From an uncultured Bacilli bacterium (GTDB lineage Bacteria; Bacillota_I; Bacilli_A; RF39; UBA660), in NCBI GenBank assembly GCA_934085675.1, contig CAKOHH010000001.1:6115-70114 (forward strand): a stretch of 64,000 bases of DNA. Reading direction: 5' to 3'. The position numbers were made by a program, and so were the translations under genes. Each line of letters starts with the position of its first letter. Within the stretch, counting starts at the first letter, position 1. Shown piece after piece: positions 33,405 to 64,000 of this stretch. The notes under the pieces were generated by a model that searched no databases, was not told the DNA's origin, and saw only the letters and a program-made list of their open reading frames with translations.

Positions 33405-34391
33405 TTGAAAAAGATTTATTTAAGTATGTTCTTATTTCTTTATTTTCTTTTTCCTAGTATAACACTTGCCTATTCTGATAAAGTGGCTCTTGGTGGAGAA
33501 AACATCGGTATTCAAATAAAAACACCAGGTGTATTAGTAGTTGGCTTTTATAAAGTAAATGGTGCTTATTTAAAGGGTACACCAGAAATTAAAATTGGGG
33601 ACTATATTTTAAAAGTTGGTGAGAAAGAGATTTCTTCTGTGAATTCTTTAAGTGAAGCTATTTTACAAAATGTTAAAGATAATCAAGTAAAATTAACTTT
33701 AAAAAGAAATGAACAGGTCATGAATATTACGATGCCACTTCAAAATGTTGATGGTATTTACAAGACAGGTCTTTATGTCAAAGAAAGTATTACAGGCCTT
33801 GGTACCTTAACCTATATTGATCCTAATAGTAAAATATATGGTGCTTTAGGCCATGAAATTTTAGAAAGTAATAGTTTACAATTAGTAGAGGTTAAAACTG
33901 GTCATATTTTTGAAAGTCCTGTGACAAGTATTCGTAAAAGTACAAGAGGTAATGCCGGAGAAAAAAATGCCGAATTTCACTTTAATAAAGTGTATGGTTC
34001 TTTAGATAATAATACGAGACATGGAATATATGGAATTTATAAAGATACTATTCCTTCTAATTTTATTCCTGTGGCTAAAAATAAAGAAATTAAAATTGGG
34101 GAAGCCGAAATCTACACTGTTTTAAACGGTCAGGAGAAAAAAAGTTATAAAATAGATATTACATCTATTCAAGAATATAACGATGTTAAAAACATTTCTT
34201 TTACTGTGACAGACGATAACCTTATTAATACCGCAGGTGGGATTGTTCAAGGAATGAGTGGTTCTCCTATTGTTCAAAATGGCAAAATTATTGGAGCAGT
34301 AACCCATGTAATTACAGACAATCCTATTACAGGGTATGGAATATTTATTACAACGATGCTAGAAACAGGAGATAATCTCTTAAAAAAATAG
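33405..34391 (+). CDS. SpoIVB-family S55 serine peptidase with PDZ domain (sporulation signalling protease-like)
   Basis: Signal/TM N-terminus; PDZ-like IKIGDYILKVGEKEISS; catalytic His (GALGHEI) and Ser (VQGMSGSPIVQNGKIIGAVTHV) motifs. Confidence 0.75.
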   Translation: MKKIYLSMFLFLYFLFPSITLAYSDKVALGGENIGIQIKTPGVLVVGFYKVNGAYLKGTPEIKIGDYILKVGEKEISSVNSLSEAILQNVKDNQVKLTLKRNEQVMNITMPLQNVDGIYKTGLYVKESITGLGTLTYIDPNSKIYGALGHEILESNSLQLVEVKTGHIFESPVTSIRKSTRGNAGEKNAEFHFNKVYGSLDNNTRHGIYGIYKDTIPSNFIPVAKNKEIKIGEAEIYTVLNGQEKKSYKIDITSIQEYNDVKNISFTVTDDNLINTAGGIVQGMSGSPIVQNGKIIGAVTHVITDNPITGYGIFITTMLETGDNLLKK

Positions 34392-36074: not shown

Positions 36075-37398
36075 TTATCTCCTCTACTTTCACTTTTAAT
36101 GTTCCTTTTGCTAAAGTAACATCTAATTTATCGTTTATATTAATTTTAGCAGTATTTTTGATAATTTCGTTATCTTTTTTGACAATAGAATAGCCTTGTT
36201 CTAAGATATTTAAAGGATTAAGCAGTTTTAAATTTTGAATCGTATAATAAAGCAGTTGTTTTTTATCATTCATATATTTAACTATTTCTTTTTGTAAGGC
36301 TTCTTTTCTATCCCAATATCTTTCTAAAGATTTTTGATAAAGAACCTTAGGATTGTTCAATATATAATTGCCTTTATACTTATCTAATTTTACCTGTAAA
36401 GAATTTAAATAATAAGTATAACTTTTATTTAAATTATCGGTTAAATTATCTAATTTTTGCATTTTTACTTCATATAAAATATGTGGATTTTTTAATACAT
36501 AATGGTTACTTAAAATACTAAGTTGATGTTTAGCAAATTGAAGTTTAGACAAGAATAGATGATTAATTTCATCTTTTTTTTGAGTCAAAATAGTCATAAC
36601 TTCTTCTTTGGTTGGCACTGCCATTTCGGCTGCCCCTGTAGGAGTCGGTGCTCTTCTATCAGCTACATAATCGGCAATCGTAAAATCTATCTCATGACCA
36701 ACAGCACTAATAATAGGTATTTTAGAAGCAAAAATGGCTCTGGCTACTATTTCTTCATTAAAAGCCCATAAATCCTCAATGGAACCGCCACCTCGCCCAA
36801 CGATTAAAACATCAAGTTTATAATGATTAGCTAAATAAATATTTTTAGCAATATCCTTTGCCGCCGAAACACCTTGAACTAAACTAGGAAAAAGAAGGGT
36901 TTTAGCATATGGAAATCTTCTTTTTAAAGTGCTCAAAATATCTTTGATAGCTGCCCCTGTGGGCGCGGTAACAATACCTATTTTAGTAGGATATTTAGGA
37001 ATAGGCTTTTTGTATTTTGAATCAAATAAGCCTTCGCTCGCTAGTTTCTCTTTTAGTTTTTCAAATTCTATATAAAGATTACCTAGGCCATCCATTTCCA
37101 TTTTTTCAATATATATTTGGTAGTTTCCTCCCATAGGATAGACAGAAATACGTCCTGTTACTAAAACATTCATACCATCTTCTGGTTTAAAGTTCAAATT
37201 AGAAGCAGCACTTTTAAACATAATAGCACTTATTCTTGACTCGTCATCTTTAAGAGTTAAATAAAGATGTCCGGAAGAATGATGTTTAAAGTTACTAATT
37301 TCTCCTTTTAAATAAACTTTTTTTAAAAAAATATTAGTATCAAAAATATTTTTAATATAATTATTAATCTCAGCAACACTTAAATATTTAGGAATCAT
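36052..37398 (-). CDS. xseA: Exodeoxyribonuclease VII large subunit
   Basis: 448 aa; N-terminal OB-fold, GRGGGS catalytic region (VGRGGGSIEDLWAFNEE). Confidence 0.92.
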   Translation of the reverse strand: MIPKYLSVAEINNYIKNIFDTNIFLKKVYLKGEISNFKHHSSGHLYLTLKDDESRISAIMFKSAASNLNFKPEDGMNVLVTGRISVYPMGGNYQIYIEKMEMDGLGNLYIEFEKLKEKLASEGLFDSKYKKPIPKYPTKIGIVTAPTGAAIKDILSTLKRRFPYAKTLLFPSLVQGVSAAKDIAKNIYLANHYKLDVLIVGRGGGSIEDLWAFNEEIVARAIFASKIPIISAVGHEIDFTIADYVADRRAPTPTGAAEMAVPTKEEVMTILTQKKDEINHLFLSKLQFAKHQLSILSNHYVLKNPHILYEVKMQKLDNLTDNLNKSYTYYLNSLQVKLDKYKGNYILNNPKVLYQKSLERYWDRKEALQKEIVKYMNDKKQLLYYTIQNLKLLNPLNILEQGYSIVKKDNEIIKNTAKININDKLDVTLAKGTLKVKVEEINDERNDV

Positions 37399-38390
37399 AA
37401 GCTTCGATCCTTTACTAAACGACTCATTTGTTCATAATGTGGAACATAAACTCTTAAAATTTGTTCAGCATATTTTTTTAAATCTTCTTTTTGATAAATA
37501 TTTATAATACGTTCCATAGCTTCCTTGATATTTTCTGGTGTTAAAATATTTTGCTGACGATAAAATTCTTTTTTAAAATTTTCCGCCGAAGACGAAAAAT
37601 AACGTGTAAAATCCTCATAAATACTTTCTATACTGTTTTCATAAGATTTCATCGAATTATTTTTGTCTAAATCTGTAAAAAAACAATCAAAACTTAAATC
37701 AACATCATATAAAGGTGACAAAGTATAATTACCATAAATATCTATTATTTCCCAATTTTTAAGATGAAAATCTTTATTCATTATCATAAAGGAAAATAAG
37801 TAACGTTTTGTTAAATCTTTGACAATTCTTTCGGTAATAATTTGGCTATTTTCTTTATCTTTAAATTGAAAACTTAAAGCATCCCAGATAAAATTTAAAG
37901 AATTACAATTGACATGCCGGCGTTCAAAAGCAGCCATCATACCCTCTAAATACTGATCATGAAAATCTTCTTGTTCCTCAGGAGTTAAGGGAGTATCTAA
38001 CCATAAACATAGTAAATTATTAGAGTATAAATATTGTAAATAATTAATAACAATTTCTTTGCCTGATAAAATGTTATCATCATATTTAATATAATTGGTT
38101 GACATCAGGCCATAAATATTTGAACCAGCATCAACTATCTTAGAATGGACTGTTTCAATTCCAACCATTCTAGCTAGTTCTTCCCCAATTATTTGAACAA
38201 AAATTTCTTTAGAAATACCATTTTTTTTAGAAATTTTTAAAAAGTAATTTTCTCCTTCAATATCATTTAACCAATATCCTGAATAATAACAACCACACAA
38301 ATCATTTGGAACAACAGTGTGATTTTTAATAGCCTTTCGCCAATTTGGAACAATACTTTTAAGATTTACAATTCCATTATTAACTTCCAT
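37395..38390 (-). CDS. HipA-family kinase-like protein (HipT-sized), embedded in nusB-xseAB operon
   Basis: 331 aa; catalytic-loop-like DFHLKNWEI (cf HipA DDHLKNFS) and LSPLYDVD (cf HipA LAPAYD); start/stop overlap nusB and xseA; not FolD. Confidence 0.5.
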   Translation of the reverse strand: MEVNNGIVNLKSIVPNWRKAIKNHTVVPNDLCGCYYSGYWLNDIEGENYFLKISKKNGISKEIFVQIIGEELARMVGIETVHSKIVDAGSNIYGLMSTNYIKYDDNILSGKEIVINYLQYLYSNNLLCLWLDTPLTPEEQEDFHDQYLEGMMAAFERRHVNCNSLNFIWDALSFQFKDKENSQIITERIVKDLTKRYLFSFMIMNKDFHLKNWEIIDIYGNYTLSPLYDVDLSFDCFFTDLDKNNSMKSYENSIESIYEDFTRYFSSSAENFKKEFYRQQNILTPENIKEAMERIINIYQKEDLKKYAEQILRVYVPHYEQMSRLVKDRSL

Positions 38391-38785: not shown

Positions 38786-38971
38786 CTAAATCACCTTCAT
38801 TCCTAACTATTTTATCAAAAAAAGATACAAGTTACTAGGCTAAATCAACCTTTTTCTTTGTATTTTTAAAGGCACCACGACCATATTTAGTGTCAATTAA
38901 GTGTCAACGTCTTATCTTTTATATTTTTAAAGTTCATTTAAAGGTATAATAAGTTTTTGAAAGAGGAAATT

Positions 38972-39793
38972 ATGGAAAAAATTGAAATTACAAAGAGCGA
39001 TTTAGAAAAACTTAAAATCATTGGTCGTGGAACAGAAGGAACAATTTATCAATATAGTAATGATGAATTAATTAAAATTTATCATAGTCATTCGGATTAT
39101 AATCAAGGAAAAAGGCAAAATATTATTGTTGATGAAAGTGGCGTTAATATAACACCTATTAAAAAGGTACAAAAGACAAATATTAAAGATCAAACGATTC
39201 AATATTTTGACACTGAAGGAGTTCGTTTAGCCAGAGAAGACGCGATTATAAAAGCCATTGAAGCCCAAAAAAATATTTATTTAACAAAACTACCCCAAAA
39301 AGCTGTATACCTAGATGGAAAAATAAGGGGATGTTCCTTATATTATCATAAACATGCCACAAATATTTATAATGTGATGCATATTCCTGTTTATAAATGG
39401 CGGTTAAAAATCGTTAAAGAAATTTTAAAAGAAGTAAAAGAGTTAGCAGATCATAATATTTATCATATTGATTTATGCCAACATCCTACTAAAGAAAATA
39501 AAAACACCAATATTTTACTCATGAGAGATTTTCATCCTGAGATTATTGATATTGATGGTCATTCTGCTATTTACTCTGAAACGCCAAGTGAATGTTATGA
39601 AAGGTCAACAACTCTTTCTTTAAGTGTCTTAGTAATTGAACTTTTATCTCGAGAGTACATTACTGATTTTTTGAGAAATCCCGAAGATATTGATCTTCAT
39701 GAGTTAGTAAGTGGGAAAATTCCTGAAGCCTTAATAGATGATTTTTTAAATGAAAAATTAACTTTAGAAAAGATTAGTAAACATTTATCTTAA
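38972..39793 (+). CDS. Protein-kinase-like (PKL/APH-fold) protein
   Basis: Gly-rich loop IIGRGTEGTIYQY, Lys in ELIKIY, catalytic-loop-like YHIDLCQHP...N, metal-binding-like IIDIDG; RBS AAGAGG before ATG 38972 (track TTG 38957). Confidence 0.55.
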   Translation: MEKIEITKSDLEKLKIIGRGTEGTIYQYSNDELIKIYHSHSDYNQGKRQNIIVDESGVNITPIKKVQKTNIKDQTIQYFDTEGVRLAREDAIIKAIEAQKNIYLTKLPQKAVYLDGKIRGCSLYYHKHATNIYNVMHIPVYKWRLKIVKEILKEVKELADHNIYHIDLCQHPTKENKNTNILLMRDFHPEIIDIDGHSAIYSETPSECYERSTTLSLSVLVIELLSREYITDFLRNPEDIDLHELVSGKIPEALIDDFLNEKLTLEKISKHLS

Positions 39794-48247: not shown

Positions 48248-48436
48248 ATGTATTATTATGGTAATAATGGTTACTATGGTGGTATGGGTGGCGGATATAA
48301 TCCATGTTATAACACAGGATATGCCGGATACACTTCTGGTTACGGTGCCGGTGCTGCAATTTGGATTGTTTTATTCATCTTACTTGTTATCATTATAGGA
48401 GCCGGCTGGAATTGGAATAACAATTCTAACAACTAA
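48248..48436 (+). CDS. YjcZ-like small sporulation protein (Gly/Tyr-rich N-terminus + TM)
   Basis: 62 aa; GYYGGMGGGYN...AIWIVLFILLVIIIGAGW; strong RBS TTAGGAGGT. Confidence 0.55.
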   Translation: MYYYGNNGYYGGMGGGYNPCYNTGYAGYTSGYGAGAAIWIVLFILLVIIIGAGWNWNNNSNN

Positions 48437-49142: not shown

Positions 49143-49186
49143 AAACGCCTATCATAAAATAGAATTATGATTGGCGTTTTTTGACA
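49143..49186. terminator. Bidirectional terminator between def (+) and 375-aa gene (-)
   Basis: AAAAACGCC(A)...TGGCGTTTTTT; minus-strand gene stop codon lies inside the hairpin. Confidence 0.6.
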
Positions 49187-50292
49187 AGTACTTCTTTTGA
49201 TGATTCTTCAAAAGAAGTAAGACATTGTTTCATATTTTCATATAAAGACTTATAGGCATTTAATTCCATACGTAATTTTTGAATTTCCGCTGTTTTTTCA
49301 CTATCACTTTTTTTGAGTTCTTTATTTTCTATTTGCAAAGAATTTAATTCTTCTTTTAATTCTGAATATGTTAATTCATCACCTGCTCCAGCCTTAAAAT
49401 GAGAATTATTGATAGCATAGCAAAGTTTTTTTATATAAAAATCATCATAATCGGTACTAATTGGAAAAGCATTTTTACCAACAGAGGCCGTGATTTCTTC
49501 TAAGAAAGCATTGTTTCTTTCTTTTTCTAATGTCTTATCACGATTATTTAATAACACTCTTTCATAGTCACGAGAAACGACAATAGACATATCAAATTGA
49601 TTCGACCATTGTCTTAGTAATCGTAATCTCAATTTTTTTTCTTCGGAATTAAGCCACATTTTTTTATTAATTTTCTTAATAAAAAGTGTAGTTGGAAAAG
49701 AACACTCTTGTTTTTGTAAGTATTTCATATACTTATCAAGATTACTTTTATTCCAGCACATATTAGAAACAGGAATATAATGTGCATCTTCATCCTTACG
49801 TAAGCCTAATACGGCATAATCATCTTCCATTTCTTTAATAATTAAATAATCAACATCTATGGCTTCTGGTAAATCATCCTGCCAGTTTTTAGATTTATCA
49901 ATTTTTATTGTAGCAGCTACGGCTAACAAACCATAACGGATATTGGTTTCAAAAACTTTAATCTTTTCTTCAATCATCGGTGAAAAAAGCAAATTGAAAG
50001 CAATATTTTTCTTAATAAAATACCCATAAAAGCGATAATAATCATCTAACATATAACGAAGTAATTCAAAAGAATTCATTTTTTTGGTTTCTAATAATGG
50101 ATTGGCATTTTTAATCAAATCGGTATTCACCCCAAGTAAATGAGCAATTCTATTTTCATTAATTTTAAATTGTAAATTATCTCCTGAAGCTATATTGTAA
50201 TAAAAAGTAAAGTCCTTTGTCCGTAACTGTTCATAATATTCTAAACATTTTTTCAAAAGAATACATAATTTTTCATATTTTTCATAACTCAT
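49165..50292 (-). CDS. Hypothetical protein with C-terminal coiled coil (375 aa)
   Basis: ORF between def and smc; heptad-rich C-terminus (LKEELNSLQIENKELKK...). Confidence 0.55.
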   Translation of the reverse strand: MSYEKYEKLCILLKKCLEYYEQLRTKDFTFYYNIASGDNLQFKINENRIAHLLGVNTDLIKNANPLLETKKMNSFELLRYMLDDYYRFYGYFIKKNIAFNLLFSPMIEEKIKVFETNIRYGLLAVAATIKIDKSKNWQDDLPEAIDVDYLIIKEMEDDYAVLGLRKDEDAHYIPVSNMCWNKSNLDKYMKYLQKQECSFPTTLFIKKINKKMWLNSEEKKLRLRLLRQWSNQFDMSIVVSRDYERVLLNNRDKTLEKERNNAFLEEITASVGKNAFPISTDYDDFYIKKLCYAINNSHFKAGAGDELTYSELKEELNSLQIENKELKKSDSEKTAEIQKLRMELNAYKSLYENMKQCLTSFEESSKEVLVKKRQS

Positions 50293-55704: not shown

Positions 55705-56358
55705 CTAACTGTAGCCATTATTTTGCTTTATATTATTAAGTATGCCCATAACTTCATTATATACTTCACTATTATTTTCAAATATTTTCTTTATTTCCTT
55801 GTTTTGATACGATTTAATGAAGTTTTCTATTTCGCTTAACGCCAAAGTAATGTTATCTTTATTTATTTTATCTTTAATAATCATTAATGCTGTATTCCTA
55901 TAGCCCATAATCGCAACACCTGCCAATGATTTATAATATTCTTTATCTGGCAAATTCGATTTTAAATAAAAATTCATAGCAAGTTCATCGGTTATGTGTC
56001 TTGGATTAGTTGGAATTATTTTATTACTTTTAATTACACCAAGTGGTGATAATTCACTAGAGCACTCTATTATTTTAGTGCCATCTGGAATTATTACATC
56101 ATAAACGGTATCTCCGTTAACTAACCATCTTAATATTTTATCTTCGGCATAAAAATCAAATCCGCCCATTTGCTCAGGTTCAGAAGTATTGGGATTCCAT
56201 TTATTTGCAGTATTTACTTCATCAATTTTATATTTAAAATTAAATTCTTTATTTTCAAACATAACTTTCATATACTTTGGTTTACTATATAATTCATTTA
56301 TAATTAAACTGGTTTTATAGTTTTTTAGAAGATTACTTTGTTCTTTATTTGTTATCAT
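55705..56358 (-). CDS. Hypothetical protein (217 aa), second gene of two-gene operon
   Basis: ATGA start/stop overlap with upstream 708-aa gene; no recognisable motif; very AT-rich. Confidence 0.55.
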   Translation of the reverse strand: MITNKEQSNLLKNYKTSLIINELYSKPKYMKVMFENKEFNFKYKIDEVNTANKWNPNTSEPEQMGGFDFYAEDKILRWLVNGDTVYDVIIPDGTKIIECSSELSPLGVIKSNKIIPTNPRHITDELAMNFYLKSNLPDKEYYKSLAGVAIMGYRNTALMIIKDKINKDNITLALSEIENFIKSYQNKEIKKIFENNSEVYNEVMGILNNIKQNNGYS

Positions 56359-58481
56359 AATCTATTCTCTCCTGCTTTTTTACCTATTTCACTAACCAAA
56401 TAACTATCAATCATCTCAACTAATAAATCACTATCAATGCCTAATTCTTGTGAGTGTTTTATATATTTTTTTTTCGTTTCAATTTTATGCTTTTCATTTA
56501 AAATTGCATTTTTTAATATTTCCATATTCATTGCTTTTAACTGATTATCTTCTATAGAACTAATATCGTTTATTATTCCTATTAATATTTGATTTATAAT
56601 ATTCTTTGAAAAATACTTTTCTCTCAAATAGTTATGAGGATATCTTAAACCCATTCTATTATTTTCAAAATCGGTAACTATTCTTGTTAATAAACTAGAA
56701 TTATGTGTTTGATAAAATTCTTCAACCATTTTATTAATTTTAAATAATTCAGATATTGCACATTTTTCCCTATTTATCTTTACAACAGGAATGTTAAAAT
56801 CTTGTGCAGCTTTTAATGAAATTGCTTTTATTCTTTCTTGTTCAACTAATAATTGCTTAGTTTCTTCATCTATTTCTTGATTATTAATATCATTATCAAT
56901 TAATTCTTCAAACATTACTATATAATCTGGATTTTTCTTGTAATGTTCTCTATCTTGAGATAAATCTCTTCTTTCAAATACTAATTCATTATAATCACTT
57001 CGCGTATTATCAATTAAAGAATTTATACTCATAAATTCTCCAAAATGATCTTGAGAATTAATTTGCCTACTTGTACATGTAGAACCTAAATCATGTGAAC
57101 CAGATAATAATAGCATTCCAGTTTCAAAATTAGAAAAACCTAAACATATATTTCTAATTGTTGCAGTTGATAAATTATTATTTGCTATTAAACTGCAACA
57201 ATTACCGTGCGATCTTATAGAATTGTTATTCCAATATTTTGAATAATTTGATTGTGTTTCCATTTCAGGCCTATATGCGCCAACTGATGTTAATATTATT
57301 TTAAAATCTGTTCCAGCATCATATATTTTAACACCATCTTTTACTTCATAATTTTCACTATTGCATTTAAATGTAGAATTTGTTAAATGCCTTAAGAATA
57401 TATCTCTCATCCCATTTTCAAATAATGAAATTGTCATATAATCCAAACAAAAATTACAATTATTTGAAATTTTTTCATATATTTGAAATAATTTATTTAC
57501 ATCAGTTTCATTTGCAACATTATAAATACTTCTATACATGGAAATATATTTATCAGATTTATCAAAATCGATACCGTCTAAATTAAATTTTTCAATTATT
57601 GATTTAGCATAATCAAGTTCTATTCCGTAACTTCTCATCAATATAGCTGTTTTGATATTATTTATATCATCAGTCGAATATTCATTTTGATTCTTAAATT
57701 TATTAATTGATTCACTTGTAAAAGCTAATATTTTTTTTTCAATTTGCCTAAGTTCAGATATACTATTAATTGTAAATTCAAAATTATTATTAGAAAATAC
57801 AAATATCAACAAATCTAAATCATGTTCCGTTAATTGCTCATTTGTAAAAGCATGTGATAAATTTTTAAAACTTTGTGTTTTCTTTTGAAACATTTCATCA
57901 TTATATTTTGGAAATGTCAGCAAACTAGCAGTAATTGATGTTCCAATTATGCCAAGAATTCTTGATATATATGGTATTGCATTACTTGTTTCAGCAACAA
58001 CCTTATTATACATTTTTGAAAAAAGATTTAAACTTGCATCATCCAAACTTAAGATTAATTGTTGGATTCTAATATCAGTAACTAGAAAATCCATATATTT
58101 TTCCAAAAAAGAATATTTATCGTCCAGCAATAATGGATTTAATGTTTCATACCAAGAATCATTATTAGATACAATTTTTTTTAATCTTTTAAATTGTATT
58201 TCTGTTAAAGGCAACTTTACAATTTCAGATTTTACTAAATCATAATCCATCCATAATTGACCCAATAAAACTTTTGTCAAAGAATCAGTTATGTTATATT
58301 TAGAAATATAATATTGTAAATTATCACTTTTGTCACACATAATTTGATAATATTCCACCGGATAGCTATCATCGTTATAGTCTATTTCATCACTTATTCT
58401 ATTGATTAATTCATAATCTACTTTCATAGCCTCACATCCTTGTAATAATACAATATCATAAAAATGATGATACAATATCAA
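56355..58481 (-). CDS. Hypothetical large protein (708 aa by track; 690 aa if ATG 58427 is used), no recognisable catalytic motifs
   Basis: Track start is TTG; first ATG (MKVDYEL, 58427) has AAGGA ~10 nt upstream; no Walker A, no TM; Cys-containing segment HGNCCSLIANN...LSGSHDLGSTC. Confidence 0.6.
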   Translation of the reverse strand: MILYHHFYDIVLLQGCEAMKVDYELINRISDEIDYNDDSYPVEYYQIMCDKSDNLQYYISKYNITDSLTKVLLGQLWMDYDLVKSEIVKLPLTEIQFKRLKKIVSNNDSWYETLNPLLLDDKYSFLEKYMDFLVTDIRIQQLILSLDDASLNLFSKMYNKVVAETSNAIPYISRILGIIGTSITASLLTFPKYNDEMFQKKTQSFKNLSHAFTNEQLTEHDLDLLIFVFSNNNFEFTINSISELRQIEKKILAFTSESINKFKNQNEYSTDDINNIKTAILMRSYGIELDYAKSIIEKFNLDGIDFDKSDKYISMYRSIYNVANETDVNKLFQIYEKISNNCNFCLDYMTISLFENGMRDIFLRHLTNSTFKCNSENYEVKDGVKIYDAGTDFKIILTSVGAYRPEMETQSNYSKYWNNNSIRSHGNCCSLIANNNLSTATIRNICLGFSNFETGMLLLSGSHDLGSTCTSRQINSQDHFGEFMSINSLIDNTRSDYNELVFERRDLSQDREHYKKNPDYIVMFEELIDNDINNQEIDEETKQLLVEQERIKAISLKAAQDFNIPVVKINREKCAISELFKINKMVEEFYQTHNSSLLTRIVTDFENNRMGLRYPHNYLREKYFSKNIINQILIGIINDISSIEDNQLKAMNMEILKNAILNEKHKIETKKKYIKHSQELGIDSDLLVEMIDSYLVSEIGKKAGENRL

Positions 58482-59165: not shown

Positions 59166-59184
59166 CTACGAAAAAGGATATGAA

Positions 59185-59212
59185 TTCATATCCTCTTTTT
59201 TATGTTTTAAAT
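59185..59212. terminator. Bidirectional terminator (perfect palindrome around GAATTC) between 170-aa gene (+) and sortase (-)
   Basis: AAAAAGGATATGAATTCATATCCTCTTTTTT. Confidence 0.55.
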
Positions 59213-59227
59213 AAAAAGTTATCATCT

Positions 59228-59923
59228 TTAAAGAGAATAACTTTTTACCTCTTTCATTAAAATAAGTAAATAATCTCCCACTGCTTTATCATAGTTGCAT
59301 GTTTGTAAAACAAGTATTTTATCAGTAGCCTTCACCCCTACTTTCGTATCATATAAAGCATGTTCTTTCATCTTTTCTAAATGATGTAAAAATTCTGTTT
59401 GTGAAGAAAAAGTAAGCCTCATATGTTCATTATTATCTTTATTAACCCCTATAACACTAAAAATCAAGTATTCTGACTTTCTTTTTCTTGTTTCTAAGAA
59501 AAACTTTGGATATTCTTTGTAAAAAGCATAAGACGTGTAGTTAATTAAAGGGGCAAAAACACCCGTATGGTCTTTAAAATGATGTCCATAAATATTTAAT
59601 TGATAACTTTCATCTATTTTATTACGATAATCTAAGAATGCTTGTCCCTCTTTTGTTTCCTTATCATACAAATCATGTTTTAAATAATAGCTATTATTCG
59701 TACTTTGCGTTATCAATGTATCTATTCCAATTAAAGAAGTTAAATGAGCAACAACTTTTTCATTATTAAAAATATCTTTTTGAAAAGTATCATCTGTAGC
59801 AATTTCCAAATTTTCATTTTCCTTTGTTTTTTCTTTCTGATAACTATAAATTGCCTCTGGTTTAATAAAATAAAGTAGAAAAAGACTAATAACTACTAAT
59901 ATTAGTTCTAATATTTTTTGCAT
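59228..59923 (-). CDS. srtB: Class B sortase
   Basis: N-terminal TM anchor, His in NIYGHH, catalytic Cys in LVLQTCNYD (TLxTC-like), 231 aa; immediately downstream of an IPPTG-protein. Confidence 0.8.
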   Translation of the reverse strand: MQKILELILVVISLFLLYFIKPEAIYSYQKEKTKENENLEIATDDTFQKDIFNNEKVVAHLTSLIGIDTLITQSTNNSYYLKHDLYDKETKEGQAFLDYRNKIDESYQLNIYGHHFKDHTGVFAPLINYTSYAFYKEYPKFFLETRKRKSEYLIFSVIGVNKDNNEHMRLTFSSQTEFLHHLEKMKEHALYDTKVGVKATDKILVLQTCNYDKAVGDYLLILMKEVKSYSL

Positions 59924-61674
59924 ATTCTTTTCTTTAATATAAAAATAACCAAAGAAATTAAAATTAAAACAGGATAAGATAGTTTAAAGTTCTCTCCAGT
60001 TGGGGGAATTTGTTCTTCAAAAACAGCTGAAACTTTTTTATAAACGTATATGACCGTGATATCTTCTTTTTGATAAACGCCTTTACTATTTAAAGGAATA
60101 CCAACAAGTTCGTAGTTTAAAATTTCTTTACTTTCAGTTTCATAGTTATCATCTAATGAACCTGTCATTTCAATCGAACTTAATAGTTCATTTCCTTCTT
60201 CATCAACATATTTTACAATAACTTTACCAAGTAAATTATGGGCTGCTTTTAAAGAAATATTCTCTCTTGTTTCTAAAGCCTTATCATATTTTTGAACAAA
60301 ATAATTTTCTTCATCATGAACATTATATCTTTTTTCTTCCGTATCTAAATACCAATCATCAATCAAATGATCACAGTCATCTAAGTTCCAATTTATAGAT
60401 GTTTTAGAAAAGTTAAATAATGCGTCTGTTACATTATAAATATCATCCCCAGCTTTACCAGCGTGATTATTATATAAAGCACTATTAATAGCGTTAACAA
60501 TACCTTTATTATAAATACCACCACCATAAGTAGAAGCATGATTATTTTGAATAACAGCTTTATTTGGTAAAGTAAGTGTTCCGGCGTTAAAGATACCTGC
60601 GCCATTTGACTTATCTTTGTTTTCTGTAATTTCTAAAAAAACATCAGAATCAAATTTAAATTGACCATAATTTTCTAAGGCATTACTCTTATTACCTTTT
60701 AAAGTTACTTTGGCACCACTAGCAATATTACCAACACTTTTATTTAGGTTACCAGAAGTTCCAAGGCGCAGACCACCGCCGATAAAACCATAGCCATTTT
60801 CATTAGAAATAATAGTTGATGAATCATCTACCGTGATTTCATTTGTGGAAGTAATACCATAATAGGCATTGTTGGTTGCATTAATAACAGAATTATTAGA
60901 AACCTTTAAAATACCCGTTGATAAGCCATGGCCAGCATTATTCAAAAAATTAATCTTAGAATTCTTAGCTTCAAAAAGGCCACCATTAGAGGCATTAGCA
61001 GTACAATTTTGCACCGTAAAATTAGAATTTTCCACATAAACCGTTGGACTATTAACATAACCACGATTTGCCCCATCAATTAAAAAACTAGAATTATTTT
61101 TAACAAATATACCTGAACCTGCTGTCATATCAAGTTGAATACCTTGACCAGTTTTACCTAAAGTATTAAGGCCTTCTATTTTGAAATTAGCATTATTGAT
61201 AACATTAATTGTTGCTTTATTATCAGCATAAATAGCGTTTCTAACTCCTTTATTACTATCATAAGAAAATGTAATACTACCTTTATTTGTCGCGGTTAAA
61301 TTACCTCCTAAAACCATACTTGCCCAAGTAGGCGCTTCGCCATTATCTGCTTTTTGCATTTTTTCTTTCGAGTTAATAACTAAATGACTACCATCCAAAG
61401 TTAAATCACTTTTATAACGCCAACCATAAACATTGTAAGTAATTGTAAAATTCCCTTTAAATGTTAAACTTTTATAAAATGTTTTGGTCGGATTTACATC
61501 ACTTAAAAGAGTAATAGTGTCCTTATCTTGAGCACTTAAAATAGCCTCATCAATATCTTCATATTTTACTTCTTTACCATCTTTCACTAAAGATGCAACT
61601 TCTAAAGCCTCCACCTTACCTAAAAACATAAATAAACTAACTACTAAAATTATAAAATAACCTTTCCTTTTCAT
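59908..61674 (-). CDS. Sortase-anchored surface protein with Gly/Asn-rich parallel beta-helix-like repeats
   Basis: Signal peptide; repeated GxGI(F/Y)N / NNxAxxGG segments (Pmp/pectate-lyase-like); C-terminal sorting signal IPPTGE + hydrophobic TM + KKRICKKY tail. Confidence 0.75.
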   Translation of the reverse strand: MKRKGYFIILVVSLFMFLGKVEALEVASLVKDGKEVKYEDIDEAILSAQDKDTITLLSDVNPTKTFYKSLTFKGNFTITYNVYGWRYKSDLTLDGSHLVINSKEKMQKADNGEAPTWASMVLGGNLTATNKGSITFSYDSNKGVRNAIYADNKATINVINNANFKIEGLNTLGKTGQGIQLDMTAGSGIFVKNNSSFLIDGANRGYVNSPTVYVENSNFTVQNCTANASNGGLFEAKNSKINFLNNAGHGLSTGILKVSNNSVINATNNAYYGITSTNEITVDDSSTIISNENGYGFIGGGLRLGTSGNLNKSVGNIASGAKVTLKGNKSNALENYGQFKFDSDVFLEITENKDKSNGAGIFNAGTLTLPNKAVIQNNHASTYGGGIYNKGIVNAINSALYNNHAGKAGDDIYNVTDALFNFSKTSINWNLDDCDHLIDDWYLDTEEKRYNVHDEENYFVQKYDKALETRENISLKAAHNLLGKVIVKYVDEEGNELLSSIEMTGSLDDNYETESKEILNYELVGIPLNSKGVYQKEDITVIYVYKKVSAVFEEQIPPTGENFKLSYPVLILISLVIFILKKRICKKY

Positions 61675-61740: not shown

Positions 61741-62370
61741 TTAACGTACTTCATAATACTGCCGTAGTTTTTTTAAGCTCTTTTGTTCATATCTAGAAAT
61801 CATTACTTGACTCATACGCATTTTTTTGGCCGTTTCACTTTGCGTTAAATCATTAAAATAACGATACTTAATAATTTTCTGTTCTTCTTCTTCTAAAGAT
61901 TCTATTCCCTCTTCAAGGGTCAGTTTTTCTTCTAGGGAAATGCTTTCTTTACTCGGAATGGTCTCATAAAGTTCTCTTGCTTCCTTGGTGTTATCATCAA
62001 GACTAGTCATTTCTCTTGTTACATATAAAACTTCTGCAATTTGAGTTAAAGGAATCTCTAAATATTGGGAAAGTTCTTCGTAATTAGGAATTTTTCCTAG
62101 TTTTAAACTAAGAGCATTTCTGGCGTGTTCAATTTGTTTTGCTAATTTTAAAATGTCTTTTGTTACTTTAATCTTACGATTTTTCATAACAAGTTCATAC
62201 ATTTCTCCAAAAATATAATCATAAGCATACGAGGAAAACTTCACATTGTTATTTTGACGATAGTTTTTATAGGCTTTTAAAACCCCTATCGCTCCAGCTT
62301 GCATTAAATCTTCAAACGGAACTTCATAGAACTTAGCTGCGATGTGTTTGATTAAAGGAGATAACTCCAA
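61741..62370 (-). CDS. Sigma-70 family sigma factor, SigF/SigG/SigB-like (group 3), N-terminally short
   Basis: 209 aa; regions 2.2-2.4 (FEDLMQAGAIGVLKAYKNY...KFSSYAYDYIFGEM), region 3, region 4 HTH (LTQSETAKKMRMSQVMISRYEQKSLKKLR); TTG start, frame closed 7 codons upstream. Confidence 0.8.
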   Translation of the reverse strand: MELSPLIKHIAAKFYEVPFEDLMQAGAIGVLKAYKNYRQNNNVKFSSYAYDYIFGEMYELVMKNRKIKVTKDILKLAKQIEHARNALSLKLGKIPNYEELSQYLEIPLTQIAEVLYVTREMTSLDDNTKEARELYETIPSKESISLEEKLTLEEGIESLEEEEQKIIKYRYFNDLTQSETAKKMRMSQVMISRYEQKSLKKLRQYYEVR

Positions 62371-62400
62371 AATAAGCGAAGCTGTGTTTATTTAAATCAC

Positions 62401-62706
62401 TCACTTTCCATTTTGTATGCGCATACGATATCCCATTAAACTTTCTTTAATATCATTTTTTACATTGCAAAGCAGAAATTTTCCTTGTTGTTTTTTCAAA
62501 ATAATTTTTGTTTTTAAAAGAACATACCTCCCTTCACTATCAACCTTCTTTAAATCTCGGCAATCTAAAATAAAAGAAGAAATGTTGTTTTTTTGCAAAT
62601 AAGGAATTACATAATGGTTAATCTTATATGTTTCTTTCTTAGTTAAATTGCCTTTTATCTTCGCGTACAAAGTATGTCCTTCTAAGCTTAAATTTAAAAT
62701 TAGCAT
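62401..62706 (-). CDS. STAS-domain anti-sigma-factor antagonist (SpoIIAA/RsbV-like)
   Basis: 101 aa; FILDCRDLKKVDSEG matches SpoIIAA phosphoserine region (DSSG), GKFLLCNV C-terminal motif; RBS AGGGTGA. Confidence 0.75.
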   Translation of the reverse strand: MLILNLSLEGHTLYAKIKGNLTKKETYKINHYVIPYLQKNNISSFILDCRDLKKVDSEGRYVLLKTKIILKKQQGKFLLCNVKNDIKESLMGYRMRIQNGK

Positions 62707-62787
62707 TCTATCACCCTCGCCTATTTTAATATAGAAGATTTTTTAAATATTTTAAAGAAGTTCGACAAGATAAGCTAAAAAAAATAA

Positions 62788-64000
62788 CTAGTTAGAGCCA
62801 GTTATTTCATCAATTTTTTGAATAGCCTCGGAAATACTACTTGAAGAAGGCATCATAACATAAGAATATAAATCAGGCATAGAAAGAGTCTTTTGATAAT
62901 CATCGACACCTGCTAAGACATTTGTTTTAATTTCCCAACTAGGCATATTATCAAGTTGCCACTCCATAAAGCTTTTGATGGAATCTAAAGACATATTCGT
63001 TGTGAAATTTCCCTCGATACTGCCAATAATTTCGGGATATTTTATCAAAATCGTTGGGGAAGTTACTTTGTTTACAATACCCTTAATAACTTGTTGTTGA
63101 TGTCGAGCACGAGCCACATCACCTTCTCTTAAATTATATCTTTCTCTAACATAAGCAAGAGCTTGTTTACCATTTAAGTCTATTTCGCCTTTTTTAAACA
63201 CATAATAAATGTGTTCGTCTTCTTCTTCGTAATCAGCCGTGAATAAAAAGGGATTATCAACCGTAATGCCACCTATAGCGTCAACAATTTTAATAAGGGA
63301 AGTAAAATTTAAACGAACATAATAATTGATATCTGTTTCTAAAAGATTTTCAATCGTTTTAACCGTTGTTTCGACACCTTTTAAGCCCGTATGTGTTAGT
63401 TTGTCTTTTAAATCATTTTCACTTCCATAAACGCTTACATAATAATCTCTTGGAATACTTGTTAAAAGAACTTGATGGGTTTTAGGATTAACCGTCACCA
63501 CCATATTAACATCACTTCTACTTACACTTGAAAGTTTCCCGTAGGTATCAATGCCTGTAATATAAACACTAAAAGGTTCTTTAGTAATTTCTACTTCTTT
63601 GGCAATATTTTCTTTTTCATAATTTACTTCTAAAACTTCAATAATCCGAACATCATCACTTAAAGAAGAATTCATTTCTTTATAGAGATTAAATTCTTCT
63701 TTTTCCATAAGAATTGCTTCTGTATAACCTTTTTTTAGTCGTTCTATTAAAGAAGTTGTATTACTAATAGGTCTATCTTTTAAAGTTACCTTTTTTGAAA
63801 GTGTTTGAAAGGCTTTTTGGGCTCCTTTCTTACTTTCTAAATAATCTATTTCTTTAGAAGAAAGATCATCTAAGCTTTCATAATTACTTTCTTTTAAAAC
63901 TAAGACATAGTAAGTTTCAGTTTGAATATTCAAAAAAGAAATATTTTTCAAAAAGTTTTCTGTCACACTTTGATAATAAAGGATAAAACTAAAGGATAAA
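62788..64000 (-). CDS. LytR-CpsA-Psr (LCP) family cell-wall glycopolymer transferase (5' end probably beyond window)
   Basis: LTSIPRDYYV, DKLTHTG, VRERYNLREGDVARARHQQQV motifs; no N-terminal TM within the 392 aa seen, ORF open to window edge. Confidence 0.8.
   Translation of the reverse strand, partial: LSFSFILYYQSVTENFLKNISFLNIQTETYYVLVLKESNYESLDDLSSKEIDYLESKKGAQKAFQTLSKKVTLKDRPISNTTSLIERLKKGYTEAILMEKEEFNLYKEMNSSLSDDVRIIEVLEVNYEKENIAKEVEITKEPFSVYITGIDTYGKLSSVSRSDVNMVVTVNPKTHQVLLTSIPRDYYVSVYGSENDLKDKLTHTGLKGVETTVKTIENLLETDINYYVRLNFTSLIKIVDAIGGITVDNPFLFTADYEEEDEHIYYVFKKGEIDLNGKQALAYVRERYNLREGDVARARHQQQVIKGIVNKVTSPTILIKYPEIIGSIEGNFTTNMSLDSIKSFMEWQLDNMPSWEIKTNVLAGVDDYQKTLSMPDLYSYVMMPSSSSISEAIQKIDEITGSN

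Follow-up and report, generated by a model that had tools for sequence, protein, structure and literature searches.

The SpoIIAA-SpoIIAB-SpoIIE switch is the textbook means by which the activity of sigma F is confined to the forespore. In Bacillus subtilis, dacF lies 5' of the spoIIA operon (spoIIAA-spoIIAB-sigF) and spoVA lies 3' of it, and the spoIIA promoter is of the sigma-H type. Partner-switching systems with unlinked components exist in other bacteria, and orphan or non-phosphorylated STAS proteins with non-kinase partners include HsbA, which acts with FlgM in Pseudomonas, and MlaB of the Mla ABC transporter. Here we analyze a stretch of 64,000 nucleotides (the window) from an uncultured Bacilli bacterium of the GTDB lineage RF39, UBA660 (assembly GCA_934085675.1, contig CAKOHH010000001.1, positions 6,115 to 70,114), in which a gene for a STAS protein is followed by a gene for a SigF-like sigma factor with no anti-sigma kinase gene between them. 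We consider it likely that this pair is a reduced, two-gene spoIIA operon of RF39, driven from a Spo0A box, from which spoIIAB has been deleted, so that the phospho-switch is inoperative and sigma F is controlled in another way.

An initial examination of the window, made from its letters and open reading frames (ORFs) and referred to below as the sequence-only reading, had described a SigF/SigB-like sigma factor paired with a STAS anti-anti-sigma protein. Both ORFs were found where it had placed them (Table 1), and the pairing of a SigF-like sigma factor with a SpoIIAA-like STAS protein is borne out by matches in Pfam, NCBIfam and the Protein Data Bank (PDB). The STAS protein scores 33.5 bits against the Pfam STAS family (cut-off 22.6 bits) and misses the curated NCBIfam cut-offs (32.7 versus 53 bits for TIGR00377, and 31.2 versus 115 bits for the spore_II_AA family TIGR02886). 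A word-indexed search with this protein gave only 6 matches; the family set used here was assembled from the loci described below. The profile of this family matches the SpoIIAA structures 1TH8, 1TID and 1AUZ at E ~2e-12, while MlaB is a weak match. The best AlphaFold2 model (pLDDT 92.4), which rests on six sequences only and had four lower-scoring companions, was aligned by Foldseek to SpoIIAA (1THN_B) with a template modeling (TM) score of 0.90 and a root-mean-square deviation of 1.5 A.

In the sigma protein, Sigma70 regions 2, 3 and 4 score 37.2, 29.4 and 46.7 bits, all over the Pfam cut-offs. Alignment to the profile models of its subfamily, which the sequence-only reading had suggested as a way to place the protein, ranks SigF (131 bits) ahead of SigG (96 bits), FliA/WhiG (87 bits) and SigB (74 bits), with the best score for the general SigB/F/G family (141 bits). 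The curated cut-offs are 234 bits for this general family (TIGR02980) and 321 bits for the SigF equivalog (TIGR02885, spore_sigF), and since every NCBIfam score falls under its cut-off, we regard the protein as a divergent member of the subfamily. Its top PDB match is sigma F of Geobacillus stearothermophilus (1L0O_C, 91 bits), with the runner-up at 54 bits. Judged by these family matches together with the synteny (dacF-like gene and spoVA) and the Spo0A box described below, the sigma factor appears to be the SigF orthologue. A SigB-type general stress module (rsbV-sigB) unrelated to sporulation is highly improbable. The pair does resemble rsbV-rsbW-sigB in having a STAS antagonist gene upstream of a group-3 sigma factor of the SigB/F/G subfamily, and the unmet SigF equivalog cut-off leaves room for such an assignment. 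However, RsbW is missing, the SigB score is far below that of SigF, the top PDB matches of the two proteins are sigma F and SpoIIAA, and the Spo0A box and the dacF/spoVA synteny mark a sporulation-type rather than a stress-type context.

We compared the locus across a sample of one genome per species, comprising 80 loci with sigma identities of 45-97%, to which the window adds an 81st species-level locus. All 80 loci come from metagenome-assembled genomes (MAGs) of uncultured gut 'Bacilli' or 'Tenericutes', including Candidatus (Ca.) Coprovivens, Ca. Onthocola, Ca. Ventrenecus, and Clostridium sp. CAG:609, and many human gut metagenomes, among them those of Hadza and other cohorts, encode identical proteins. 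The GTDB order RF39 contains Ca. Coprovivens in its family CAG-1000 (PMC8035907). A STAS ORF of 98-125 amino acids (aa) lies directly 5' of the sigma gene in 73 of the 81 loci, and a kinase gene in none. The gap between the two genes ranges from -41 to +30 nucleotides (nt), and the frequent overlaps of 1, 4, or 17 nt imply translational coupling.

Clustering of the neighbours in the 81 loci identified, on the upstream side, a dacF-like gene for an S11 D-Ala-D-Ala carboxypeptidase (Pfam 270 bits; 32 loci) and a gene for an LCP (LytR-CpsA-Psr) glycopolymer transferase. The latter, at position -2 in 44 of the 81 loci, is the operon's conserved neighbour on that side and encodes 481 aa in full-length copies (loci L001-L012). 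On the downstream side, genes for SpoVAC (94 bits), SpoVAD (359 bits), and SpoVAEB (93 bits) occupy positions +1 to +3 in 33 loci, and a gene for SpoIIIAH lies a few kb upstream of the locus in relatives. In these relatives the sigma gene therefore has the position expected within a dacF - spoIIA - spoVA neighbourhood, whereas the window has genes for a MucBP-domain surface protein and a class B sortase (SrtB) in place of spoVA. By its gene order, the locus is best described as the ancestral dacF - spoIIAA - spoIIAB - sigF - spoVA sporulation locus of RF39 with spoIIAB apparently deleted.

The closest described system is thus the spoIIA operon of B. subtilis and G. stearothermophilus (structures 1TH8/1THN and 1L0O), with which the RF39 operon shares the SpoIIAA fold, a sigma factor closest to sigma F, the order of STAS and sigma genes, a 0A box in the promoter, and, in the relatives of the window, the flanking dacF-like and spoVAC/AD/AE genes. 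It differs in the lack of spoIIAB, in a phospho-serine that is not conserved, in a STAS protein that is ~15 residues shorter at the C-terminus and a sigma factor that is ~30-40 residues shorter at the N-terminus, in the LCP gene between the dacF-like and STAS genes, and in a promoter that looks sigma-A-type.

The absence of the kinase gene was examined in the window and in 101 related loci (~1.5 Mb). Six-frame tblastn, phmmer and jackhmmer searches of these sequences gave no SpoIIAB or RsbW match, and no GHKL anti-sigma kinase (HATPase_c_2) is present in the operon in any of them. Pfam detected no HATPase_c domain in any neighbour or scanned ORF of the window, and precomputed Pfam annotations list none within ~10 kb on either side in 12 metagenome contigs encoding identical proteins. 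The queries were the B. subtilis SpoIIAB and RsbW sequences, which were confirmed as HATPase_c_2 proteins (84 and 106 bits). A positive control was provided by a canonical STAS - HATPase_c_2 - sigma - SpoVAC - SpoVAD locus, which contains a 254-aa sigma factor with 37% identity (P0221) and keeps the same sigma - spoVAC - spoVAD order; the two queries match its kinase at E=1.6e-28 and 5e-19. In the window, the STAS and sigma genes are separated by exactly 30 nt (coding strand GTG ATT TAA ATA AAC ACA GCT TCG CTT ATT), too few for a gene. Given this gap and the empty six-frame and profile searches, the kinase gene is truly missing at the locus, as the sequence-only reading had stated, and has been neither overlooked nor hidden by a frameshift. 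On the scale of the order, a KEGG-based survey reports that spoIIAB and spoIIE are less often present or wholly missing across high-quality RF39 genomes (Field, Bowerman & Hugenholtz 2024, PMC10868615).

The phosphorylation site was examined in an alignment of 72 distinct STAS sequences of the family with SpoIIAA and RsbV. Ser57 of the window protein (VDSEG) aligns with the phospho-Ser58 of SpoIIAA, and in this respect the earlier statement that the STAS gene retains a phosphorylatable serine is correct. It does not hold as a sign of a working switch, for 15 residue types occur in the column (E in 17 sequences, S in 12, F in 9, L in 8, N in 7, I in 4, A in 3, Y in 3, T in 2, and others), and close relatives of the window have F, L, I, T, E, or N at this position. 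The column has the highest entropy (3.31 bits) of the 99 in the alignment, while the flanking Asp and Gly, each kept in 71 of the 72 sequences, rank 96th and 95th. Since this column is the most variable of the family, the serine in VDSEG represents one drifting state rather than a conserved site, and no Ser or Thr in a D-S-x-G context is conserved across the family. Loss of the kinase and the phosphatase fits such a freely varying site. The system thus appears to derive from spoIIAA-spoIIAB-sigF, but its predicted components do not make a partner-switching module, with neither a kinase nor a conserved phospho-site among them.

These observations bear on the possibility that the partner switch is intact, with a SpoIIAB/RsbW-type kinase and a PP2C phosphatase encoded elsewhere that act on STAS Ser57 and on the sigma factor. 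The window protein has D-S-x-G at the right position, unlinked components are known from other systems, and our kinase search covered the window and related loci. We nevertheless consider an intact switch improbable, in view of the variable serine column, the lack of a kinase in ~1.5 Mb of related loci, the near or complete lack of spoIIAB and spoIIE in the RF39 survey, and the deletion of the STAS gene in seven species in which the sigma gene and its promoter stay. The suggestion of the sequence-only reading that the kinase is encoded elsewhere is unlikely given the variable serine and the survey.

The reduced spoIIA operon has a conserved promoter region. A perfect TGTCGAA heptamer, corresponding to a Spo0A (0A) box, was found in coding orientation 57-107 nt 5' of the STAS start in 71 of the 73 STAS-bearing loci and also in all seven loci that have lost the STAS gene, at a constant distance from the -35 and -10 elements. 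In the two exceptions, L080 and L097, the box reads TGTCGGA. The looser pattern TGNCGAA, counted on either strand, has a background frequency of 0.09 per 250 nt. Over the whole window, 5 matches were observed versus 4 expected; the single box of the window is therefore not significant alone, and its weight comes from its conservation across loci. The clade-wide motif can be written as TTTGTCGAAnnTGTTTAAA - N15 - TCTATATT - ... AGG..GGTGA - ATG, with most columns conserved at 0.8-1.0 in the 80 loci. From the known 0A-box consensus we infer that Spo0A binds the putative box, and the conservation of this promoter suggests that expression is switched on by Spo0A~P, as in the canonical spoIIA operon; on motif grounds, the promoter would be of the Spo0A-dependent type. 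A tblastn search with the B. subtilis Spo0A sequence gave no match in the window or in any locus, and so the Spo0A gene is not near the locus.

Candidate forespore-type promoters were searched for with the pattern G[ACT]AT[AG] - N14-18 - CAT.[ACT]T. within 100 nt upstream of genes. Such candidates precede spoVAC in 19 of 33 loci and the dacF-like gene in 10 of 32, as compared with ~1% of other neighbour genes and none of five MucBP genes. Over the window as a whole there are 19 matches, below the number in shuffled sequences (28), and none of them lies within 120 nt 5' of a gene.

The sequence-only reading had raised the possibility that a reduced STAS-sigma module regulates the adjacent sortase and adhesin genes, and had proposed a promoter search ahead of them. 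The MucBP and sortase genes adjoin the sigma gene on the same strand (the sigma-to-MucBP spacer is 66 nt), and no minus-strand terminator is predicted between positions 61741 and 59564; thus the cassette may share the operon transcript in this lineage, starting from the Spo0A-box promoter. Co-transcription is the only sense in which the predicted regulation of adjacent genes could hold. A module dedicated to the adhesin and sortase genes is otherwise improbable: the MucBP gene is found at position +1 of sigma in only 5 of the 81 loci and the sortase cluster in 7, which points to a recent, lineage-specific insertion, and the cassette is much younger than the STAS-sigma pair. Ancestrally, sigma was followed by spoVAC/AD/AE, as still seen in 33 loci, and it is spoVAC, not the MucBP gene, that is preceded by forespore-type promoters.

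Among strains with 97-100% identical proteins, the LCP-STAS-sigma-MucBP-SrtB block occurs in two chromosomal contexts. In L011 and L022 it lies behind genes for VanY and an S11 peptidase, near SpoIIIAH, and in the window and L001-L010 it follows scpAB - RNase R - MarR - two ABC transporter genes. The two contexts indicate that the region was recently rearranged, the breakpoint lying upstream of the LCP gene.

We used the Nei-Gojobori method to estimate ratios of nonsynonymous to synonymous substitution rates (dN/dS) for unsaturated pairs (sigma dS 0.01-0.6), and obtained 0.10-0.20 for the STAS gene and 0.07-0.17 for the sigma gene. Between the window and loci L022 and L023, the sigma gene has 6-7 nonsynonymous differences (Nd) versus 19-21 synonymous ones (Sd), and the STAS gene 2 versus 8-9. 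The counts for sigma indicate that this gene is still constrained after the N-terminal truncation described below, and both genes are under purifying selection. The sequence-only reading had allowed for this copy being a pseudogene; by these counts neither gene is one.

Seven species have lost the STAS gene. In the Ca. Coprovivens group (L062, L064, L065, L078, and L088) and in L044, a clean deletion has left the 0A-box promoter straight before the sigma gene, while in L052 the STAS sequence is unrecognisable and its start codon altered. An eighth STAS-less locus (L055) is cut by the contig end. Given the losses in seven species, the STAS protein is useful yet not indispensable, and sigma F cannot be held back by it alone.

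It is very improbable that the two genes are decaying, functionless relics of a lost sporulation pathway. Such a view could draw on the loss of the kinase, the loss of the STAS gene in some lineages, the nonsense codon at sigma codon 3 and the weak TTG start that no obvious ribosome-binding site precedes, as well as on a predictor that classes RF39 as non-sporulating. It conflicts with the low dN/dS of both genes (0.07-0.2, the truncated lineage included), with the promoter and Spo0A box conserved in 78 loci, and with intact ORFs throughout 81 species of bacteria with reduced genomes.

As a separate observation, the sigF-like genes of two RF39 species, in short loci (L080:715 and L097:8754), share an in-frame TGA (..KMI*KIASHFYG..) where relatives have K, W, Y, or H. 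The pN/pS values over the gene, including the stretch from the TGA to the next Met, are 0.07/0.45, which suggests read-through or recoding of TGA rather than a dead gene.

The sequence-only reading had also stated that the sigma factor lacks its first ~40 residues. This is true, but ~30 of these are missing as a trait of the whole family, and a further 10 codons were lost in the lineage of the window. The sigma homologues (204-220 aa, more than 100 clusters at 50% identity) start ~30 residues later than B. subtilis sigma F, and Pfam region 2 is nearly whole (profile positions 5-70 of 71). In the window, L022 and L023, the STAS stop codon is followed by GTG ATT TAA, a putative relic of the ancestral sigma start, as judged from the N-terminus of homologue P0027, MIQINTTSLLTELSPL. 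In L024 and L100 (87-88% identity) the same codons read GTG ATA CAA and the frame is intact (MIQINTTSLL...). Since these two loci read through in frame, the window lineage has undergone a CAA to TAA nonsense change at sigma codon 3, which closes the sigma frame upstream within the 30-nt gap, and the start appears to have moved 10 codons downstream to a new TTG. No obvious ribosome-binding site precedes this putative start, and re-initiation after the STAS stop is a plausible route to it. The STAS and sigma ORFs of the window share one reading frame (62368-62706), with only the STAS TGA and the ancestral codon-3 TAA between them.

The likely course of events can be outlined as follows. Deletion of spoIIAB would date from the common ancestor of the sampled clade or from an earlier stage, with the result that spoIIAA abuts, and usually overlaps, sigF. 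The operon would be transcribed from a sigma-A-type promoter with the 0A box beside the -35 element, and translation of the STAS and sigma proteins would be coupled. Forespore-type promoters (GnATA - N14-18 - CATAnT), such as are conserved ahead of the dacF-like and spoVA genes in relatives, would then be read by sigma F, perhaps alongside a sigma G paralogue. Because the kinase is gone, the site varies and the STAS protein is dispensable in sublineages, the phospho-switch of SpoIIAB, SpoIIE and SpoIIAA Ser58 would be off, so that control of sigma F would be mainly transcriptional or exerted through another factor; phosphorylation-driven partner switching has most likely gone. Our best guess is that the STAS protein serves as a non-phosphorylated stoichiometric partner of sigma F or of another protein. 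Of the options, direct binding of sigma F ranks first, being favoured by the translational coupling, followed by a non-kinase partner and then by a role independent of sigma. From HsbA and MlaB it is seen that a STAS protein of one domain need not be a GHKL kinase substrate in order to function; neither has a link by sequence or context to the RF39 system, and the RF39 STAS gene, unlike theirs, is translationally coupled to a sigma gene. Later, in the lineage of the window, the nonsense change at sigma codon 3 would have led to the TTG start, and the MucBP/sortase B cassette would have replaced the genes after sigF.

Several points weigh against this explanation. The STAS protein of the window and 11 other family members do carry Ser at the phospho-position, and in Ser-bearing lineages it may be phosphorylated by an unrelated kinase. 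A search of 1.84 billion proteins gave no natural STAS-sigma fusion in its 150 best representatives, the longer matches being a duplicated assembly artefact or unrelated extensions. Spo0A binding and the use of sigma F promoters are deduced from motifs only, and for whole genomes the lack of a SpoIIAB/RsbW-type kinase and of SpoIIE is taken from the KEGG-based RF39 survey. Sporulation of RF39 is a prediction, and what the operon serves could be a modified or a residual programme. According to one predictor, RF39 MAGs have a 0% sporulation probability, and in the same study spoIIAB is among nine genes found in all predicted spore-forming MAGs. In the survey by Field et al. (PMC10868615), on the other side, sporulation is predicted for RF39 with strongly different regulation and many sporulation genes retained. 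These conflicting predictions limit how surprising the present finding is.

A more specific version of the proposal, which we put forward only tentatively and regard as doubtful, is that the Spo0A to sigma F programme has been kept and the phospho-switch replaced, with the non-phosphorylatable SpoIIAA descendant now a direct stoichiometric regulator of sigma F or of a new partner and cell-specific activation achieved by a mechanism new to model spore-formers. The control of sigma F in RF39 must differ from that in all spore-formers studied so far. An abundant uncultured order of the human and animal gut keeps sigma F, a Spo0A-box promoter, SpoIIAA, spoVA, and SpoIVB under purifying selection, yet without the kinase and with a phospho-site set free to vary. 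Either compartmentalisation of sigma F is possible without the switch, which bears on the evolution of sporulation and its minimal gene set, or the Spo0A-to-sigma F axis has been re-used for another purpose in reduced-genome symbionts. If RF39 sporulates, it is a real exception to the textbook rule; if it does not, the locus is an unusually well-preserved remnant with a re-used axis. The 0A-box promoter, the STAS-sigma junction, and the forespore-type promoters offer markers for judging RF39 sporulation, on which the two published predictions disagree. A lineage-wide lack of spoIIAB and spoIIE is reported in the Field et al. survey (PMC10868615), which is based on KEGG presence and absence and, in the text consulted, gives no account of how the locus is built, of its Spo0A-box promoter, of the lost phospho-site, of the repeated STAS losses, or of selection on the genes that stay. 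Nor did we find any paper that describes one of these features.

Table 1. Features of the STAS-sigma locus, the downstream cassette and the spoIVB gene (positions in the window)
Feature	Position	Strand	Remarks
LCP (LytR-CpsA-Psr) glycopolymer transferase gene	62788..64000	minus	5' end beyond the window; Pfam LytR_cpsA_psr 147 bits
Putative Spo0A box TGTCGAA	62761..62767	minus	just 5' of the -35 element; same heptamer and orientation across loci
Predicted sigma-A-type promoter, TTTAAA, 17-nt spacer, TATATT	62728..62756	minus	-35 at 62751-62756; -10 at 62728-62733
Shine-Dalgarno GAGGGTG for STAS	62712..62718	minus	read from the sequence; AGG..GGTGA conserved there across loci
STAS gene	62401-62706	minus	101 aa; from the ORF list and Pfam STAS (33.5 bits)
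Putative relic of ancestral sigma start, GTG ATT TAA	62392..62400	minus	directly 3' of the STAS stop codon
Sigma gene	61741-62370	minus	209 aa; TTG start; Sigma70 regions 2, 3 and 4
MucBP-domain surface protein gene	59908..61674	minus	588 aa; Pfam MucBP 63.8 bits
Class B sortase gene	59228..59923	minus	overlaps the MucBP gene; TIGR03064 103 bits (under cut-off); Pfam Sortase 27.8 bits
Palindromic hairpin AGGATATGAATTCATATCCT	59175..59194		between the convergent sortase gene and 170-aa ORF
SpoIVB peptidase gene	33405..34391	plus	Pfam Peptidase_S55 230.8 bits and a PDZ domain

The LCP and STAS genes are separated by a spacer of 81 nt, and all genes from LCP to the sortase gene lie on the minus strand. 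The hairpin at the distal end of the cassette likely marks the end of the transcription unit. Elsewhere in the window, the gene for the signalling protease SpoIVB is intact, with a CATAATA -10-like element 12 nt ahead of its ribosome-binding site, and its presence is context evidence that the genome retains sporulation genes. A solitary relative of the sigma factor without a STAS gene, the 218-aa protein P0169 (37% identical; L104:3628-4284 and L105:787-1443), is flanked by a weak HamA (Hachiman-like) match and a DEAD/ResIII helicase on one side and by a KAP NTPase and an MmeI-type enzyme on the other. In this setting, a short SigF-like sigma factor also occurs in an apparent defence island.

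Beyond the hairpin, two overlapping ORFs of 708 and 217 aa (55705-58481, minus strand) have no match in Pfam, NCBIfam, or PADLOC. They are present in the window, L002, and L009, and absent from the otherwise collinear L001, L003, and L004, and thus form a strain-variable island between the 170-aa ORF and znuA. In NCBIfam and PADLOC, the 708-aa, 217-aa and 170-aa ORFs and other unannotated ones had no match except for the PADLOC model PDC-M03A (37 bits), which matched a HipA_C-like kinase-fold protein (36 bits; 37395-38390, minus strand) whose gene sits between nusB and the gene for the large subunit of exonuclease VII. A protein with a PBECR4 domain (precomputed Pfam; a predicted phage- or toxin-type nuclease family), without a PADLOC match, is encoded at 49165-50292 on the minus strand, adjoining the peptide deformylase gene. 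A 62-aa Gly/Tyr-rich peptide at 48248-48436 (plus strand), with no NCBIfam match, has a hydrophobic C-terminal segment (MYYYGNNGYYGGMGGGYNPCYNTGYAGY...). Finally, a 278-aa ORF at 38957-39793 (plus strand) matches no family, and by eye it contains protein-kinase-like motifs, namely a glycine loop (GRGTEGTIY) and a catalytic-loop-like YHIDL...N.

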